The notes under the pieces are model-generated. The model did not search any database, was not told where the DNA came from, and saw nothing but the letters and a program-made list of their open reading frames with translations. 44,855 nt of DNA from NCBI GenBank assembly GCA_012164735.1, contig GCA_012164735.1_4544.1; one strand, given 5' to 3'. Positions 2,772 through 22,975 of the stretch are shown piece by piece. How positions within the stretch are numbered: position 1 is the stretch's first letter; each line of letters starts with the position of its first letter. The stretch comes from a phage. The position numbers and the translations under genes are program-made.

Positions 2772-2843
2772 ATTCTGCGCGCATTGGTTGCCATTTTGAG
2801 TGTTTTTATCCAGTCGCATTGGTTGCCGTGTAGTGTAAATATA

Positions 2844-3049
2844 GTGAATAGTTATGCAGTTTTATTGCATAAACTAAGCGGGACAAAAAGCGGGACAAAC
2901 AAGGGGCGGGACAAAGCGGGACAGCACCCCAGTCCCGCCCCGGATGGCGCGGCTTCCGGAGGAGCGGGACAGCGGGACAGCACCCCAGTCTTTCAGACTA
3001 GACGGGGGTCAGCGGCCCCCCTCGTCTGAGACTGAATAAAATCCGGAGA
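2844..3049. repeat. Copy 1 of a ~206-bp duplicated non-coding element: GCGGGACA iterons (direct at 2878, 2890, 2906, 2916, 2964, 2972; inverted at 2932) plus a 67-bp imperfect palindrome (2983-3049)
   Basis: Direct comparison with 20071-20276; immediately downstream of the primase-helicase gene. Confidence 0.8.
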
Positions 3050-10052: not shown

Positions 10053-11573
10053 ATGACCGTTAACGTTGACAACCAGCACCCGCTCTATGCGCGCATCGCG
10101 CCTGAGTGGAAAATGATCCGTGATTGCGTGGCAGGTGAGCGCGCCGTGAAGGCGTGCGGCCCCTTATACCTTCCACACCCAGCCAGTGGCGACAACACTG
10201 ACCCGAAAGCACGGGCGCGATACAAGGCGTATAAGCAACGCGCTGTATTCCTGAACGCCACCGCCCGCACACTTAACGCGCTGTTAGGCGTTGCCTTTGC
10301 TAAACCGGTAAGTCTGGACCTTTCCGGGGCGATGGCTGACCTGATTGACGACGTAGACGGCAGCGGGATGCCACTGCCACAACTCCTGCGCGGTGCTATG
10401 TCTGAAGTGCTGCAATCGGGACGTGCGGGCTTTATGGTCGACTACGACCGCCAGGCGCATTTTGATGAACTGGGTAACGTAGTGCCGCAGACCGCCGCCG
10501 AGATGGCGTCACACCGCCCGCTTATCCGCCTGTACACGGCAGAACAGATCATCAACTGGCGGCAGACCCACGGCGTCGATACGCTAATTGTGCTGAAGGA
10601 AACTGACGAAATCAGCACCGAAGACCCCGACGACTTCGCAAACCACGAAGTCACAATCTGGACTGAATTGCGCATGATTGACGGCAAGGCACACGCCCGC
10701 CGCTGGTTTTATAATGCGGACACGTCAGAAGTGCAAATGGACTTGCCGCGGGGATTCACCCGTACCGACCTTGTGCCACTGGTGGATGCTGCCGGTAACG
10801 CGCTTACGCAACTGCCTTTCTGTTGGTGTGGTGCGGTGGACAACAACGCAACGCCTGACGCCGCTCCGCTGGCGGATATCGCATCCATCAACATTAAGCA
10901 CTACAACGCCGAAGCGGACGTCGCCGAGATTGCGCACATCGTGGGCCAACCTACACTCATTGCGACTGGTCTGACCCAATCATGGGCGGACAAGAACCTG
11001 AAAGGAGGCATCGCGCTCGGGGCAACTAAGGGCGTTATCCTGGGCCAGAACATGGACGCCAAACTGCTTCAGGCGGAGGAGCGCAACTTGTCTGTTGCAC
11101 TGTGTGAGCGCCGCGAATTGCAAATGGCTAAACTGGGCGCGGCCCTTGTCGAGAAAGGGACCGCACCTAAGACGGCAACAGAGGCGGCTTATGATGCGCA
11201 GACTGATAACAGTATCCTGTCTCTGATTGCCGGTAACGTTGAGAAGGCTTTCAACCGTGCGCTGCAAATCGTCAAGCTGTTCACTGGCGACACCGCAGAT
11301 CAACGCGTAACGCTGAATAAGTTCTACACCGAAATCACGGTTGACGCACAGCTTATGACCGCAATGATGGCGGGTGTGCAGACCGGTACTGTCCGTCTGG
11401 CGGACTTTATCAAGTGGATGATGGCCCAGGGCGTTATTGATGACTCGCAAACCGTCGAGCAGGTGGAAGACGAACTGCGAAATCAGAATCCATTGCCTCA
11501 AATGTCCCCTGATGCGGTAGAATCTACCGAAGAAGACCCGGACAAGGTAGCGGACGATGGCGAGAACAATTAA
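10053..11573 (+). CDS. Portal protein
   Basis: 506 aa, strong RBS aagga, follows terminase; synteny. Confidence 0.7.
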   Translation: MTVNVDNQHPLYARIAPEWKMIRDCVAGERAVKACGPLYLPHPASGDNTDPKARARYKAYKQRAVFLNATARTLNALLGVAFAKPVSLDLSGAMADLIDDVDGSGMPLPQLLRGAMSEVLQSGRAGFMVDYDRQAHFDELGNVVPQTAAEMASHRPLIRLYTAEQIINWRQTHGVDTLIVLKETDEISTEDPDDFANHEVTIWTELRMIDGKAHARRWFYNADTSEVQMDLPRGFTRTDLVPLVDAAGNALTQLPFCWCGAVDNNATPDAAPLADIASINIKHYNAEADVAEIAHIVGQPTLIATGLTQSWADKNLKGGIALGATKGVILGQNMDAKLLQAEERNLSVALCERRELQMAKLGAALVEKGTAPKTATEAAYDAQTDNSILSLIAGNVEKAFNRALQIVKLFTGDTADQRVTLNKFYTEITVDAQLMTAMMAGVQTGTVRLADFIKWMMAQGVIDDSQTVEQVEDELRNQNPLPQMSPDAVESTEEDPDKVADDGENN

Positions 11574-12660
11574 TCAATATATGGCGGACCGCATGATCCG
11601 CCGACACATCTTCACCCAGCGCCTGAGTAATGACCAGGCGCGAAGGGTGCTGTCCATGTGGGAGAAGTTCCGGCCTACATTACTGGGAAAGCTGACCGAG
11701 TTGCTTGATGGCAAATCGTCAATGAACAACAAGGCACTTTCCACCCTGCTAACGCAAATCGACAAGACCGTAAAAACGGAACTGCGCACCGAGTTTAAGG
11801 CGTTGGCTGAAAGCCTTCAGGAGTTTGCAGACACGGAGGCTGATTATCTCGCCGACACATTAACGGCAGCGATCCAGCCGGTGGTCGCCGTACCTGCGGT
11901 CGAGGTGGTTGGTGTAGTGACCGGTGCGCAGATCGCAGCGACGGCTATGAAAAACCCGTTCCAGGGTAATACTATGATGCAATGGCCTGACTCACTTTCA
12001 GAGTGGACAAGGACGCAGATCGGTAACCAGGTGCGAGCGGGATTCATCCAGGGCAAGCCAACGATGGAAATTATTGCGGACGTGAGGCGCGCGCTAGGCG
12101 GTCGTAGTGCGCAAGCGATCTCAAGCGTCGTTAAGTCCGCGGTCAACCACTATGCGGCGACCGCCCGCGAATTAATGGTAAAAGCTAATGACGATATTCT
12201 CGAAGGCCGCCAATGGTTGGCTACATTGGACACGCATACTTCTCCCATGTGCCAGCTACGCGATCGCCTGTTTTATCCGGTTGATGTTACTCCCGACACC
12301 AAAGGAAAGCGCGGCGGGAAAGTGGTGGCTGGATCACAATATGGCGCTGGTCCGGGCAAGTTGCATTATTGCTGCCGTTCGACGGAGACGTGGAAAGTCA
12401 AAGGTATGGAAGATTGGCCCAGTGGTAAGCGTCCGGCACTGAAGGCTGACGCGGGTCGATTGCTTAGTGAGCAGGTCGACGCGCAGACTGATTTCTTCTC
12501 CTGGGTGCAGCGCCAGCCTCGCCATATTCTGGAGGAATTATATGGGGTGCAGCGCGCTGACCAGATTATGCGCGGCGTGAAAGTGCCGAAGATGTTTACC
12601 GATTCTGGCGAACTGATGACTATCGCACAGCTTAAAAACCGGGGGTTATGGCGTGATTAA
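11557..12660 (+). CDS. Head morphogenesis protein (Mu F / SPP1 gp7-like)
   Basis: 367 aa following portal; synteny. Confidence 0.6.
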   Translation: MARTINQYMADRMIRRHIFTQRLSNDQARRVLSMWEKFRPTLLGKLTELLDGKSSMNNKALSTLLTQIDKTVKTELRTEFKALAESLQEFADTEADYLADTLTAAIQPVVAVPAVEVVGVVTGAQIAATAMKNPFQGNTMMQWPDSLSEWTRTQIGNQVRAGFIQGKPTMEIIADVRRALGGRSAQAISSVVKSAVNHYAATARELMVKANDDILEGRQWLATLDTHTSPMCQLRDRLFYPVDVTPDTKGKRGGKVVAGSQYGAGPGKLHYCCRSTETWKVKGMEDWPSGKRPALKADAGRLLSEQVDAQTDFFSWVQRQPRHILEELYGVQRADQIMRGVKVPKMFTDSGELMTIAQLKNRGLWRD

Positions 12661-17990: not shown

Positions 17991-18412
17991 TGAGCAATAC
18001 CGCAATCCGCAAAGCGCTTAACAGCGTGGTTGAAGAGTTATCGGCAAGCCTGAGCACAAGCCAGCGTCCGATTATGGTTAACTGGGAGAACGTGAGCGGC
18101 GACCACGCAAACGGCAGCGGTGTCTACCTGGAGCCGTACCTGCTACCGGCCCCGACCCAGTTTGTGGGCTTACAGCAGAAGGGCCGGATCTATGCTGGCG
18201 TATATCAGGTTGCCGTGGTGTTCCCGGCGGGCACAGGCACACAGTACGCGAGCGAACTGGCGGACGCCATCGCTACATCGGATAAGTGGTCGGCGGTGAA
18301 GATTTCCGGCGCGTCATTTCAGCTTCAGGACGCGCCATACACCAGTTCAGTGATTGAAGACGTTGATCGCGCCCGCATCGTGGTTACAGTCCCCTACACC
18401 TGTTGCGCCTGA
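17990..18412 (+). CDS. Tail terminator / tail completion protein (putative)
   Basis: 140 aa, ATGA overlap, immediately upstream of major tail protein. Confidence 0.4.
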   Translation: MSNTAIRKALNSVVEELSASLSTSQRPIMVNWENVSGDHANGSGVYLEPYLLPAPTQFVGLQQKGRIYAGVYQVAVVFPAGTGTQYASELADAIATSDKWSAVKISGASFQLQDAPYTSSVIEDVDRARIVVTVPYTCCA

Positions 18413-18473
18413 TTTGGCGCAATTCTGCGCGTGCTGTATCATTAAACCGTATATCTAAACAGGAGCGTTCATT

Positions 18474-19199
18474 ATGGGTTATCAACTTCCTAACGGGTCC
18501 AGCGTGCAGATCGGGTCCGTATTGGGTGCAGGCATCGCAGTTACGGCAGCGACCAACGCCGCGGCGTCAATCTCCGATCTTACGCAAGGATGCGTTATCA
18601 CCTGCGCGGCGTCGCATGGTCTTGCTGTGGGAGACGTGGTTATGTTCACTAAAACCCCGTGGGTACGTGCGCTTAACCGCGCGTTCATCGTGGGTAAAGT
18701 GGATACTAACGACGTGACGCTGGCGCGCTTCGATACTCAAGACGTAACCAAATACCCGACCGGTGCTTTCGGAGTAGGCACACCGGGTGAGGTGGTGAAG
18801 GTGTCGAGCTTTATCGACTTCCCGTTTATCACTAACGTTGCCGTGTCGGGTGGCGACCAGCAGACCACCACCTTCCAGCCGTTGCAGGTGAATACCGCGA
18901 TCAGTCTGAACACCACGAAAAACCCGTTGGTCCAGACCTACACTTTCACCCACGACGAAGAAGACCCGATCCGCCCGATTCTGGAAGACCTGGACGACAC
19001 ACAGAAAACCACTGTGATTAAGTTCACCAACCCGGCAGCGGCAAGCGGCAAAGGTGAGATCCGCATTTACCCGGCTAAGGTGTCTTTCCAGAAGATTCCA
19101 TCTGCTGAAGTAAATAACGTGGAGACGGTGGAGTCCACCCTCACTATGCAGTCCGATATGGTTATTTACCGTAAGGACTTGGTCGAGGCGCTGTCGTAA
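18474..19199 (+). CDS. Major tail protein (tube)
   Basis: 241 aa, strong RBS, followed by terminator then the G/GT chaperone pair. Confidence 0.6.
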   Translation: MGYQLPNGSSVQIGSVLGAGIAVTAATNAAASISDLTQGCVITCAASHGLAVGDVVMFTKTPWVRALNRAFIVGKVDTNDVTLARFDTQDVTKYPTGAFGVGTPGEVVKVSSFIDFPFITNVAVSGGDQQTTTFQPLQVNTAISLNTTKNPLVQTYTFTHDEEDPIRPILEDLDDTQKTTVIKFTNPAAASGKGEIRIYPAKVSFQKIPSAEVNNVETVESTLTMQSDMVIYRKDLVEALS

Positions 19200-19229
19200 T
19201 TTGGTCGCTTAAATAGCGGGTGTTAATAT

Positions 19230-19252
19230 GGGGCCAGTACGGCCCCTTTTTT
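19230..19252 (+). terminator. Rho-independent terminator
   Basis: Stem ggggcc/ggcccc, loop agtac, T6. Confidence 0.6.
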
Positions 19253-19269
19253 ATTGGAGAATTACATAA

Positions 19270-19631
19270 TGGCTAAATCACCACTCTTCACACTTGACCC
19301 TAAACCGACATTTAAGCTGCCGATTGAGATCCCGCGCCCTGGTGAGAACGAACCGGGCAAAATGACGTTTACCGTGCGCCACCGCCCTATCGACGAATTT
19401 TCGCAGACCATGCAGGACACTGAGCGCAAATTGTCGGAGTATGACGACAATGACCCGGAAGGATTTAACGTTATGGTCGAGGCCATCATGCACGTCGCTG
19501 AAGGCTGGAATTTGCCGGACGAATTTAATGCTGCCAACGTCCGCCGCCTGGTGGTCAACTACCCGCGCGCGTTCGGCGTGTTCCATACGTCGTACTATCT
19601 CGAACTGATGGGGTTGCGTGAAAAAAACTAA
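19270..19631 (+). CDS. Tail assembly chaperone (lambda G-like), zero-frame product
   Basis: Position before tape measure; ends at a slippery site. Confidence 0.65.
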
Positions 19632-19945
19632 TTGAGGCGGCGCGACGCTTTTATGGCCCGCCGCCACCCTCCGAAGATTTAGCTGCGAGTTTATGGGGCG
19701 CGACCCCTGAAGATGTTTGCCCGCCGGTTGCGCTATGGCCTGACAACGCGAAGGTAGTCGCCGTCTTCACTGATTGCTCCACGCAATGGCGCACCGGATT
19801 CGGTGGCGCATACGGCATCGACTACGGTGTACTGGAATGGCTATTTAAGATGCACGGCATCGAAAACGCGCAACGTGCGTTTAAAGATATCAAGCTAATG
19901 GAACGCGTTGCGCTGGATGAAATGGCGCGGCAGAACCACGCATAG
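19270..19945 (+). CDS. Tail assembly chaperone GT-like fusion via programmed -1 frameshift at A_AAA_AAC (19622-19628)
   Basis: Open -1 frame from 19628 to stop TAG 19943-19945 (105 codons) directly after a canonical slippery heptamer. Confidence 0.55.
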
Positions 19946-19949
19946 CGGA

Positions 19950-20276
19950 GCGGGACAGGCGGGACGTCCCGTTTTGTCCCGCCACAATTAAACCGCATAT
20001 ATACTCACTTTCATTGCATAAACTAAAAGCGGGACAGGGGAGCTGTCCCGATCTGTCCCGCACCCAAAATGTGAATATCTATTCAGTTTTCGTGCATAAA
20101 GTAAGCGGGACAAAAAGCGGGACAGAATGAGGCGGGACAAAGCGGGACAGCACCCCTGTCCCCGTCAGTGCTGCCGCGGGTTTTAGCCGATCGGGACTGG
20201 CGGGACAAACCCCAGTCTTTCAGACTAGACGGGGGTCAATGGCCCCCCTCGTCTGAGACTGAATAAGGTTTGTTTT
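19950..20276. repeat. Copy 2 of the duplicated element and additional iterons: GCGGGACA direct at 19950, 19959, 20029, 20105, 20117, 20132, 20142, 20200; inverted at 19975, 20044, 20054; 67-bp palindrome at 20210-20276
   Basis: Counted directly; 20071-20276 aligns with 2844-3049. Confidence 0.8.
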
Positions 20277-20284
20277 AAATTCGC

Positions 20285-20293
20285 TGATACAAT
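20285..20293 (+). promoter_or_regulatory. Extended -10 promoter candidate (TGaTACAAT) preceded by TCGCTGATA, upstream of tape measure gene
   Basis: TG 20285-20286, TACAAT 20288-20293. Confidence 0.35.
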
Positions 20294-20329
20294 GACCGAC
20301 GGCAACTGCATAAAAAGGGGGACTGCATA

Positions 20330-22975
20330 ATGGCAGATCAGGCAGCGGGCATCACGCTCAAGGCGGACGTCGCGCAAATCAAAACGGCTAATACTGTGCT
20401 GGACACATTTGCGCAGAAATCCGAGAACACAGAACAGAAAGTAAAGAAGTTAAACGACACACTCGGCAAGTCGAAAAAGGTTACTGGCGACGCCGCTGGC
20501 GGAATGGAAAAGTTAGCGACTGAATCGCAGCGCGCCGCCGACGGCATGACGAAACAGGAGCGACTCGCCAGCCGATTAGGCATGTCGACCAAAAACCTGG
20601 GATTTGCATCGCGGAACGCCGCATTCCAGTTACAGGATATCGCGGTGACGCTTGAAATGGGTATGCCGGTGCATCGAGTCATGCTTCAGCAGCTACCACA
20701 GCTTACGGGGGCGTTTGGCGGGTTGGGGAATACGCTGCGTTATGTCGTCGGCACCCTCGGCCCGTTAGGGATCGGCATCGCTGCATTAACGGCAACGATG
20801 GGCGTTGGCGTGTCGATTATGTCCCGCGCGGAAAACCAAGTGGCGGCGCTTAACAAGACGCTGGCACTGTCCGGTAATATTTCTGGCCTCACCGCTAACC
20901 AGATCCTGGTGCTATCCGAGAACGCCGAGCGGATGGGCGGATCATTCCGCAAGACGCGTGACACCATTCAGTCACTGGCGGCGGCTGGTGTGAAAGCGGG
21001 TGCGGACTTCGGCGCACTGGCGAAGGTGGTGAATGACTTCTCGAAGGTGTCCAGCCAGCCGATCGAAGATGTGGTCGCGGCGGTGGCGAAGCTGTCAACC
21101 GACCCGGTAGGCGGCTTGCGCGCACTGGCGGATAAGTATCACGTTGTAAACGAAGCGCAGATCCAGCAGGTGCAGTCGTTGGTGGATATGGGGCGCGAGA
21201 CAGATGCGGTTGCGTTGGCTAACAAAACCGCCGCCGCGTCGTTCACCACTATGACCAACGATATCAAGGCGAACATGGGTACGCTTGAGCGATCTATGAA
21301 CGTCGTCACATCGGCAGCTAAATCCATGTGGGACGCCATCCTGGATGTGGGTCGCGCGCAGTCCTCCAATGAGTCAGAGATGAAAGCGCGTGAATCCTTG
21401 CAGCGCATGACCACTGCTTACTATGCCGAGATGAAAGCGGTAAACGCTGCCGGTGGGGTAATGACTGAAGCGCAGAAAGCACGTATTAACATGCTTTATA
21501 GCGAACTGGTCGCCCAGGAGAAAGTAGTGGCGTCGCTCACCATGCGTAACCGTGCGGAGCGTGACAACGCCCGTTCCGCGGACGAATCCGCAAAGGCGAA
21601 CGAGGAGGCCAACCGCACCGCCCGCGACCGCGCTGCGTTCGAGAAGGAGTACGCGACCAACGCGAAGAAGCGCGCAGACGAGATCGCCCGCCTCAATTTG
21701 CTGAATAAACGCGGCGTAATTGATGAGAAAGAACTAGCCGAGGCGGTGAAGCAGGTAAACGAGCGCTACAAAGACCCGGCCCCGAAAAAGGCCGCGGCTG
21801 TTCGCGTGGATGCCGGTATGAAAATGCTGGAGGTTGCACGGAGCGAACTGGCCCAGCTTCGAGAATCCGGCAAGCAGATCGAAGCCAACGCGTCTACGCA
21901 GACCCGCACGCAACGCGCTCAAGCGGCCTTAAACAAGCTGATCGCCGACAATGAGCAGTTAATCGTCGCGAGCAAAGAAAGGGCGCTAACGGCAGCAGAG
22001 AAGCAGCAGATGGTCGAATTCGGACGCGTGAAGGAAGTGCGCGAGCAGATCGTCGAAGAAGCCAAATTGCTGGACGCGAAAGAGAAGCAGGTTAAGGCGC
22101 ACGCGCAGATCGATGCCTTCGTTAAGAACCAGAACGCCGAGCTAAAAGCCACCGCGGCTGGCTATGCGCTTTCCACTCGAGAAGCGGCAAACCTGCGTGA
22201 AGAATTGCAGCTAATCGACCGCCTGAAGCGTGTAGGCGCTAACGATACCGATATTGACAAGGCGGTGTCTAAGCTGCGGGAAGTGCAGGAGGCGCAGACC
22301 GGCGCTAACGCCTCGCTATGGGATGGATTCAGTCGCGGGCTTAAGGATAGCGTGGATGAGATGGGTAACGGATATACGCAGATGACGTCACTCACAAAAT
22401 TCACGTTCAGCGCTATGCAGGACACGATGAACGAATTTTTCGAGACGGGCAAGCTGAGCGCGAAGGATATGGTTAAGTCCATCCTGAGCGAATTAATCAA
22501 GCTAGCTACCTCGCAGGCGTTCAAATCCGTCGTTAGCGCTTTCGGCGGTGACGGCGGCAAAAACGGATTGTTCGGCGCTATCTTCTCCGGCCTCACTAAG
22601 AACGCAGACGGCGGAGCGTACGCAGGAGGCAACCTCGCGGCCTATTCGGGGCAAGTGGTAAGCCAGCCTACCTTTTTCAGCTATGGCGTCCAGGCGTTCG
22701 CGAAGGGCGCAGGATTGATGGGTGAGGCTGGACCCGAGGCAATCATGCCACTGAAGCGCGGGCCGGATGGGAAACTGGGCGTTGCCGCTGCCGGTGTTGG
22801 TGGGGGTGGGATGATTGTAACGACCAACGTGAACATGGGGACCGGTAAAACGGACACCAGTGTGAGCGGACCGGACCCACGCACCGCGCAGGCGTTCGGC
22901 AAGCAAATCACCGAGTCGGTCAAGGCTGAGATCGTGAAAGCGACGAAACCGGGTGGAGTACTTTACAAACGATGA
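20330..22975 (+). CDS. Tail tape measure protein
   Basis: 881 aa, Ala/Gln-rich helical; follows G/GT; length implies a tail of roughly 130 nm at about 0.15 nm per residue. Confidence 0.85.
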   Translation: MADQAAGITLKADVAQIKTANTVLDTFAQKSENTEQKVKKLNDTLGKSKKVTGDAAGGMEKLATESQRAADGMTKQERLASRLGMSTKNLGFASRNAAFQLQDIAVTLEMGMPVHRVMLQQLPQLTGAFGGLGNTLRYVVGTLGPLGIGIAALTATMGVGVSIMSRAENQVAALNKTLALSGNISGLTANQILVLSENAERMGGSFRKTRDTIQSLAAAGVKAGADFGALAKVVNDFSKVSSQPIEDVVAAVAKLSTDPVGGLRALADKYHVVNEAQIQQVQSLVDMGRETDAVALANKTAAASFTTMTNDIKANMGTLERSMNVVTSAAKSMWDAILDVGRAQSSNESEMKARESLQRMTTAYYAEMKAVNAAGGVMTEAQKARINMLYSELVAQEKVVASLTMRNRAERDNARSADESAKANEEANRTARDRAAFEKEYATNAKKRADEIARLNLLNKRGVIDEKELAEAVKQVNERYKDPAPKKAAAVRVDAGMKMLEVARSELAQLRESGKQIEANASTQTRTQRAQAALNKLIADNEQLIVASKERALTAAEKQQMVEFGRVKEVREQIVEEAKLLDAKEKQVKAHAQIDAFVKNQNAELKATAAGYALSTREAANLREELQLIDRLKRVGANDTDIDKAVSKLREVQEAQTGANASLWDGFSRGLKDSVDEMGNGYTQMTSLTKFTFSAMQDTMNEFFETGKLSAKDMVKSILSELIKLATSQAFKSVVSAFGGDGGKNGLFGAIFSGLTKNADGGAYAGGNLAAYSGQVVSQPTFFSYGVQAFAKGAGLMGEAGPEAIMPLKRGPDGKLGVAAAGVGGGGMIVTTNVNMGTGKTDTSVSGPDPRTAQAFGKQITESVKAEIVKATKPGGVLYKR

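Follow-up and report, generated by a model that had tools for sequence, protein, structure and literature searches.

The class of G/GT-type frameshifts in tail chaperone genes is reportedly to be attributed to Xu, Hendrix and Duda 2004, and the work on lambda G/GT is said to be that of Levin, Hendrix and Casjens 1993 and of Xu, Hendrix and Duda 2004, 2013 and 2014. Here we describe a stretch of phage DNA of 44,855 nucleotides (nt) (contig GCA_012164735.1_4544.1, assembly GCA_012164735.1; the whole stretch is called the window in the following), in which the tail assembly chaperone gene G and an open reading frame (ORF) in the -1 frame behind it, T, are very probably connected by a genuine programmed -1 ribosomal frameshift of the G/GT type, so that two tail chaperones would be made from one mRNA. 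Judged from its sequence, the window belongs to a Dhillonvirus-type coliphage with a lambda-like tail gene order; positions 18400-20400 match the Dhillonvirus coliphages JL1, EC115, YD-2008.s and SSL-2009a at 93-97% identity.

In lambda, G binds the tape measure protein, as does the shared G portion of GT; the T portion recruits the tail tube protein, and neither G nor GT is found in the virion (PMC5009743). The ratio of G to GT is about 30:1 and is critical; the system is reviewed in the same paper (PMC5009743). A conserved frameshift was also noted for the tape measure chaperones of the T1-like phages (Drexlerviridae), e.g. Stevie (PMC4319613) and U136B (PMC8104045), and these are the closest described cases.

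The locus in the window is composed of the following parts.

19269-19631, + strand: G, tail assembly (tape measure) chaperone, 120 amino acids (aa), 13.9 kDa, standard decoding (PF08748 Phage_TAC_4, E 2.2e-23; phrog_569, E 9e-40)
19619-19621, + strand: TGA which closes the -1 (T) frame immediately 5' of the heptamer (from sequence and translation)
19622-19628, + strand: slippery heptamer A_AAA_AAC, in X_XXY_YYZ phase relative to G (from sequence; kept or swapped for G_GGA_AAC in relatives)
19629-19631, + strand: TAA, 0-frame stop of G, abutting the heptamer (from sequence)
19628-19945, + strand: T extension in the -1 frame, 105 codons and TAG (PF08809 DUF1799, E 2.8e-21; phrog_680, E 2.6e-31)

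The 3' end of G reads CTG ATG GGG TTG CGT GAA AAA AAC TAA, i.e. LMGLREKN-stop. The -1 frame is open from 19622, reads CTA ATT GAG from 19628 onwards and runs through 105 sense codons to the TAG at 19943-19945; its first T codon, CTA (Leu), consists of the C of the heptamer and the TA of the G stop. With the -1 frame open only from 19622 onwards and the 0 frame ended by the stop at 19629, the heptamer occupies the only possible junction, and the 10-nt stretch which holds it is the sole site where a -1 shift can join both frames. The initial annotation of this DNA had placed the LREKN-stop end of the chaperone ORF, the A_AAA_AAC and the 105 open codons with their TAG at exactly these positions, and all of its coordinates were confirmed. 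Its assignment of the locus to the G/GT arrangement of long-tailed phages likewise agrees with the position, the domains, the slip site, the conservation and the selection reported below.

Heptamers of the general form X_XXY_YYZ are rare in the genes of the window. They were found at 4 of 5,485 in-phase positions in 15 genes of the + strand, and the one at 19622-19628 is the only one located at the end of a gene. The word AAAAAAC as such is not enriched in the window (3 copies versus 7.4 expected). Stop-free runs in the -1 frame inside 14 structural genes have a median length of 11 and a maximum of 98 codons, so none reaches the 105 codons of T, for which the chance of meeting no stop is P ~1.4e-3.

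The two products would arise as follows. Most ribosomes would read 19269-19631 and terminate at the TAA, which gives G. A small fraction would slip one base back while the P site holds tRNA-Lys on AAA and the A site holds tRNA-Asn on AAC; the two tRNAs would re-pair with AAA_AAA, and decoding would resume with CUA AUU GAG and continue to the TAG. The predicted product is GT, a protein of 225 aa with the junction ...LREKN-LIEAARR.... The rate of slipping may be tuned by the adjoining stop codon, by a hairpin which begins 7 nt downstream and by an upstream GGGG that weakly resembles a Shine-Dalgarno (SD) sequence, and the low ratio of GT to G would be set by the intrinsically weak heptamer of the AAC type. 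By analogy with lambda, the shared G part would coat the tape measure protein, the T part (DUF1799) would recruit the tail tube protein, and G as well as GT would be absent from the finished virion.

Both parts of the putative fusion are complete members of known families. G matches PF08748 with 83.3 bits (cut-off 21.1) over profile positions 1-124 of 124, and residues 23-99 of T match PF08809 with 76.0 bits (cut-off 26) over profile positions 1-80 of 80. In PHROGs both proteins fall in tail categories. The conceptual GT, join(19269..19628, 19628..19945), has a mass of 25.6 kDa and aligns without a break to positions 1-212 of 213 of phrog_17368 (E 5.9e-31), which means that fusion-length deposited proteins of the GT architecture exist. 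A comparison by sequence with solved structures gave no match for G or T. A search of a collection of 5.8 billion proteins with GT returned two relatives which comprise G only (58-60% identity), no fusion-length protein and no Dhillonvirus protein. About 150 Dhillonvirus genomes are public, and the close relatives appear either to be absent from this collection or to be missed by its word index.

The RefSeq label given to G, 'tail length tape measure protein', is taken from the PHROG label and is misleading.

The conservation of the junction was followed in two rounds. A first search with the T peptide revealed 45 viral loci in identity tiers of 88-99%, 41-45% and 36-41%. In 44 of the 44 informative loci the upstream ORF has an in-phase canonical heptamer immediately ahead of its stop, namely A_AAA_AAC in the tiers of 88-99% and 41-45% and G_GGA_AAC in the tier of 36-41%. 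The second round, a profile search, yielded 80 viral and 53 prophage loci from Enterobacteriaceae, Pseudomonas, Photorhabdus, Xanthomonadales and betaproteobacteria. The automated scan was passed by 130 of these 133 loci (101 with A_AAA_AAC, 28 with G_GGA_AAC, one with A_AAA_AAA), and in 123 of the 130 the heptamer abuts the stop. One of the three failures is an artefact, as A_AAA_AAC_TGA is actually present. An A_AAA_AAC followed immediately by a stop is also seen in HK639, in the T1-like phage orkinos, in the Edwardsiella phage eiAU-183 and in two metagenomic relatives whose G is 58-60% identical. The initial annotation had made its case depend on the conservation of the -1 ORF in relatives; overall the ORF is kept in 180 loci, and these comprise 143 distinct junction sequences with an A_AAA_AAC or G_GGA_AAC cassette.

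Some loci deviate from this pattern. The record of the Escherichia phage vB_EcoS_Zar3M (NC_073065.1) contains many N residues at positions 720-860 of the locus, and the readable slip site is A_AAA_AAT TAA, which is canonical and encodes Asn followed by Leu. In the prophage of Photorhabdus australis DSM 17609 (NZ_KL543987.1, locus positions of about 1190-1200), the slip site carries A8 rather than A7, so that G and T share a single frame (..GLFREKKLIAVARALY..). This reflects either a natural variant with GT only, decay of the prophage or an error in sequencing the homopolymer. Among the relatives, a canonical heptamer is missing only from Candidatus Nitrotoga sp. M5 (locus positions of about 1175-1192), which has AAG_GGG_AAA_ATC_TAG and may shift on G_GGG or by another route.

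Several points speak against a programmed ribosomal frameshift at this site. In E. coli, A_AAA_AAC is an inefficient shift site relative to A_AAA_AAG (PMC5009743, PMC4066793). High-level shifting requires an all-purine or all-pyrimidine ZZN (PMC4066793). A joined GT coding sequence (CDS) is annotated in none of eight Dhillonvirus records (JL1, Kenya-K19, NHEP3, jat, EE09, Opt212, CS16, Zar3M), no joined feature is found in the HK639, orkinos, eiAU-183 or lambda RefSeq records, and no NCBIfam model spans the GT fusion. The 102 nt downstream of the heptamer fold no better than their shuffles (z -0.26), the 60-nt downstream folds of 15 lineages are not significant, and RNAalifold gave no consensus structure for 103 ungapped sequences. 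Finally, the A7 run at the site could support some transcriptional slippage. The weakness of the heptamer fits a system in which only a small share of GT is needed.

The cluster A_AAA_AAC_1 of insertion sequences (IS) is, as we assume, the insA-insB' frameshift of IS1. It has the identical heptamer, is likewise found in an E. coli host and is a proven case of a low-level -1 shift at A_AAA_AAC in bacteria, for which no stimulator is established (PMC4066793). The product of IS1 is a transposase and not a tail chaperone, and there is no homology between the two systems.

Transcriptional slippage, in which RNA polymerase would add one A on the A7 run (19621-19627) and thereby create a product with the junction ...LREKK-LIEAARR..., is very unlikely to be the source of GT. 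The A8 of the Photorhabdus australis prophage, with G and T in one frame, indicates that the tract is length-labile or error-prone, which would suit such a route. Seven A are below the run length at which the RNA polymerase of E. coli slips appreciably. The distant clades with G_GGA_AAC (the 36-41% tier and 28 loci of the second round) do not have a homopolymer run, yet the heptamer occurs there in the same phase and in the same position next to the stop. Transcriptional slippage is therefore unlikely to be the main route, and what is conserved is a ribosomal slip pattern and not the length of a run.

An extremely improbable alternative to the ribosomal frameshift is that T is made independently, through an internal start or through termination-reinitiation at the stop of G (e.g. 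at ATT 19631-19633), and that no fusion exists. Many depositors and gene callers list pieces of the T frame as small ORFs in their own right, and the eiAU-183 and lambda records give T as a separate CDS. However, the annotated fragments begin at differing, non-conserved positions. The protein alignment of T starts in all clades at the first codon past the heptamer, which is CTA or CTG and thus no start codon; the corresponding Leu is invariant and is formed from the C of the heptamer and the TA or TG of the stop. As the homology begins at codon 1, the stretch upstream of any start codon must be translated. The T frame has its earliest ATG, GTG or TTG at codon 75 (19850), which lies well inside DUF1799, so that the domain cannot arise by independent initiation. 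Moreover, an independent start would leave the canonical heptamer in about 180 loci unexplained. T is hence predicted to be translated only as the C-terminal part of GT.

In the eight Dhillonvirus records listed above the T frame is either blank or split into small 'hypothetical proteins' which start at non-conserved internal codons. The small ORFs called by annotators in the T frame and in the repeat-rich gap behind it vary, e.g. an ORF of 104 aa in EE09, and are probably spurious. We found no published mention of a frameshift for Dhillonvirus, and none for HK578 together with tail assembly chaperone. For DUF1799 the literature search returned one paper, which lists DUF1799 as a separate ORF.

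The substitution pattern of the T frame points in the same direction as its homology. Among 15 Dhillonviruses, the variable columns number 18 at first, 8 at second and 65 at third codon positions, which indicates that the frame is translated and under purifying selection. The idea that the -1 ORF is an unexpressed, decaying remnant of a separate gene or fusion and that the heptamer is coincidental, for which the missing fusion in the public annotation is the sole support, can practically be dismissed in view of this third-position bias, the intact Pfam domain and a T frame which is uninterrupted in all relatives, including those with as little as about 35% identity.

As in lambda, the G/T pair is located between the tail tube gene (V; here the PF08813 gene at 18474-19199) and the tape measure gene (H; here the PF06791/PF09718 gene at 20330-22975), it consists of two ORFs, with a canonical heptamer for a -1 shift close to the end of G and with a T that lacks its own start, and homologues of M, L, K, I and J follow downstream. 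The sequences themselves are different. There is no detectable similarity to lambda G (BLASTP E 7.1) or lambda T (hhalign probability 1%), and the lambda proteins belong to PF06894 and PF06223 and not to PF08748 and PF08809. In lambda G_GGA_AAG lies five codons before the G stop, whereas A_AAA_AAC abuts the stop here; lambda T overlaps the start of H, whereas T is followed here by a non-coding gap of 384 bp. The element would work like lambda G/GT and lies outside the lambda sequence families.

To the T1-like phages there is a relationship by sequence as well. Their T carries a homologous DUF1799 domain (30-38% identity to the T described here), and orkinos combines A_AAA_AAC and the immediate stop with a hairpin in the same register, +8/+37, as the candidate stem-loop given below. 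They differ in that they belong to another genus and in that no more than about 40 nt separate their T stop from the start of the tape measure gene.

Two elements next to the heptamer are candidates for stimulators.

19610-19613, + strand: GGGG, weak SD-like sequence 8 nt ahead of the heptamer, candidate 5' stimulator (anti-SD duplex energy)
19636-19665, + strand: candidate stimulatory stem-loop, GGCGGCG (19636-19642) with CGCCGCC (19659-19665), 7-nt spacer after the heptamer (fold)

A downstream stimulatory structure had been raised in the initial annotation as a point to be checked. In the longer folds and in the consensus prediction mentioned above it did not show up, but a local hairpin at 19636-19665 with outer pairs in register could be identified. 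Its stability is -17.1 kcal/mol (z -2.0), and 8 of 200 shuffles were equally good. In 20 Dhillonviruses the stem arms are invariant and the loop and the flanks vary; further relatives preserve the stem arms with altered loops, or with a C-to-T change that retains a G-U pair. The synonymous variability among the Dhillonviruses has its minimum in the first ten codons of T, where it affects 2 of 10 codons versus 7-9 of 10 typically.

For the outer four pairs (+8..+11 with +34..+37) 103 distinct junctions were compared. 79% of the cells are paired versus 66% in column shuffles, and none of 2000 shuffles reached as high a value, with the caveat that the haplotypes may each be one clade and that the structure came from one of the tested sequences. 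The haplotypes are GGCG/CGCC, GGTC/GACC, GGTC/GGCC and GGTT/AACC, of which all but GGTC/GGCC are compensatory. A sliding-window scan revealed a local dip in the mean stability for windows beginning at +5.

The anti-SD duplex energy of the 143 distinct junctions has its peak at -12 to -8 from the heptamer, with a mean of -3.3 kcal/mol versus a background of about -0.7, a peak which is confounded with a conserved Gly codon. Together these data are suggestive of a stimulatory role of the hairpin and the SD-like GGGG, which we regard as candidates. The layout of this candidate signal is the same as in dnaX of E. coli, where an SD-like G-run about 8-12 nt upstream, a heptamer with lysine codons and a hairpin a few nt downstream are found (PMC5009743). 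However, dnaX has A_AAA_AAG with the far slippier AAG in the A site, its stimulators are proven and its shift amounts to about 50%, whereas the stimulators here are candidates and a low rate is expected.

For at least one other system, an influence of a nearby stop codon on shifting is described (PMC5009743). By analogy, the near-universal adjacency of the stop codon may matter for the shift described here, but that is speculation. The AAC ending of the heptamer is almost always retained across the family although AAG is far slippier. It is conceivable, if rather doubtful, that the Phage_TAC_4/DUF1799 family uses a distinct termination-coupled cassette made of a heptamer ending in AAC, an abutting stop and a stem at +8/+37. 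If so, the stop and the hairpin would be an integral and not an incidental part of the signal that sets the GT:G ratio, and the Dhillonvirus cassette would be further uncoupled from the tape measure gene by a structured, repeat-rich element of 384 bp which occurs at two places of the genome.

The main value of these findings lies in the annotation, since the mechanism is textbook knowledge and no concept is changed. Dhillonviruses are widely used as model and therapy-candidate coliphages, e.g. in the BASEL collection and as SECphi phages (PMC11564622), and a correct annotation of their chaperones is therefore useful. The locus also adds a well-conserved natural example of a weak A_AAA_AAC site beside a stop codon, and such a site could be used in E. 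coli as a convenient frameshift module of low efficiency.

The following features surround the locus or lie further upstream in the window.

8657: terminase (Pfam)
10053: portal-like gene (Pfam)
15278: major capsid protein (Pfam)
17990: tail terminator gene (Pfam)
18474-19199, + strand: major tail (tube) protein gene, equivalent of lambda V, upstream neighbour (PF08813 Phage_tail_3, E 1.1e-32)
19230-19246, + strand: terminator-like GC hairpin with a T6 run behind it, in the interval from the tail tube gene to G (consensus scan)
19946-20329, no strand assigned: non-coding gap from T to the tape measure gene, 384 bp, with GCGGGACA repeats and hairpins (from sequence)
20330-22975, + strand: tape measure protein gene, equivalent of lambda H, downstream neighbour (PF06791 TMP_2, E 1.8e-42; PF09718 Tape_meas_lam_C, E 8e-14)

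According to the Pfam assignments, the late operon has the order tail terminator followed by the equivalents of V, G, T, H, M, L, K, I and J. The terminator-like hairpin at 19230-19246 folds with -13.6 kcal/mol (z -2.4), and the HK639 and CS16 records carry an annotated terminator at the equivalent position. It probably lowers the expression of the chaperone and of further genes downstream of the abundant tube protein. A consensus scan of 19100-20400 for sigma-70 promoters found none, and the Rfam scan of the whole window gave no family match.

A second in-phase heptamer, G_GGA_AAG at 11685-11691, is located in an ORF of 367 aa (11557-12660) in the head region and was rejected as a recoding site. 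The -1 frame stops there after 5 codons, so that only a rare truncated product would result. G_GGA_AAG belongs to the heptamers which are highly shift-prone in E. coli.

The gap behind T is context and not part of the frameshift signal. The initial annotation had described the -1 ORF as running straight into an iteron locus, and indeed the first GCGGGACA repeat is found at 19950, 5 nt past the TAG. The gap contains 9 of these motifs, of which the window as a whole has 19 versus 2.15 expected. It further comprises two palindromes of 34 nt, one with an RNA fold of -26 kcal/mol (z -4.9) and one with -24 kcal/mol (z -4.3), as well as two AT-rich 30-mers, four direct copies of AAGCGGGACA in tandem and a terminal hairpin with -28.7 kcal/mol. 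A gap of that kind is specific for Dhillonvirus, where it measures 357-394 bp and has 11-14 CGGGAC cores, in comparison to -1 to 51 nt in the other DUF1799 phages examined. A literature search with the repeat motif returned only primer noise.

A module of about 205 bp exists in two copies (2840-3045 and 20065-20270) with 88% identity. It is made up of TGCATAAAnTAAGCGGGACA..., a repeat array and a terminal hairpin (CAGTCTTTCAGACTAGACGGGGG...CCCCCCTCGTCTGAGACTG; -28 kcal/mol, z -3.2 to -4.1). Copy 1 lies just downstream of the ORF 507-2771, which encodes an AAA_25 protein of 754 aa (primase/helicase-like), and copy 2 just upstream of the tape measure gene. The gap could be an origin, a set of regulator-binding arrays or a late promoter region, and it is an odder feature of this neighbourhood than the frameshift.

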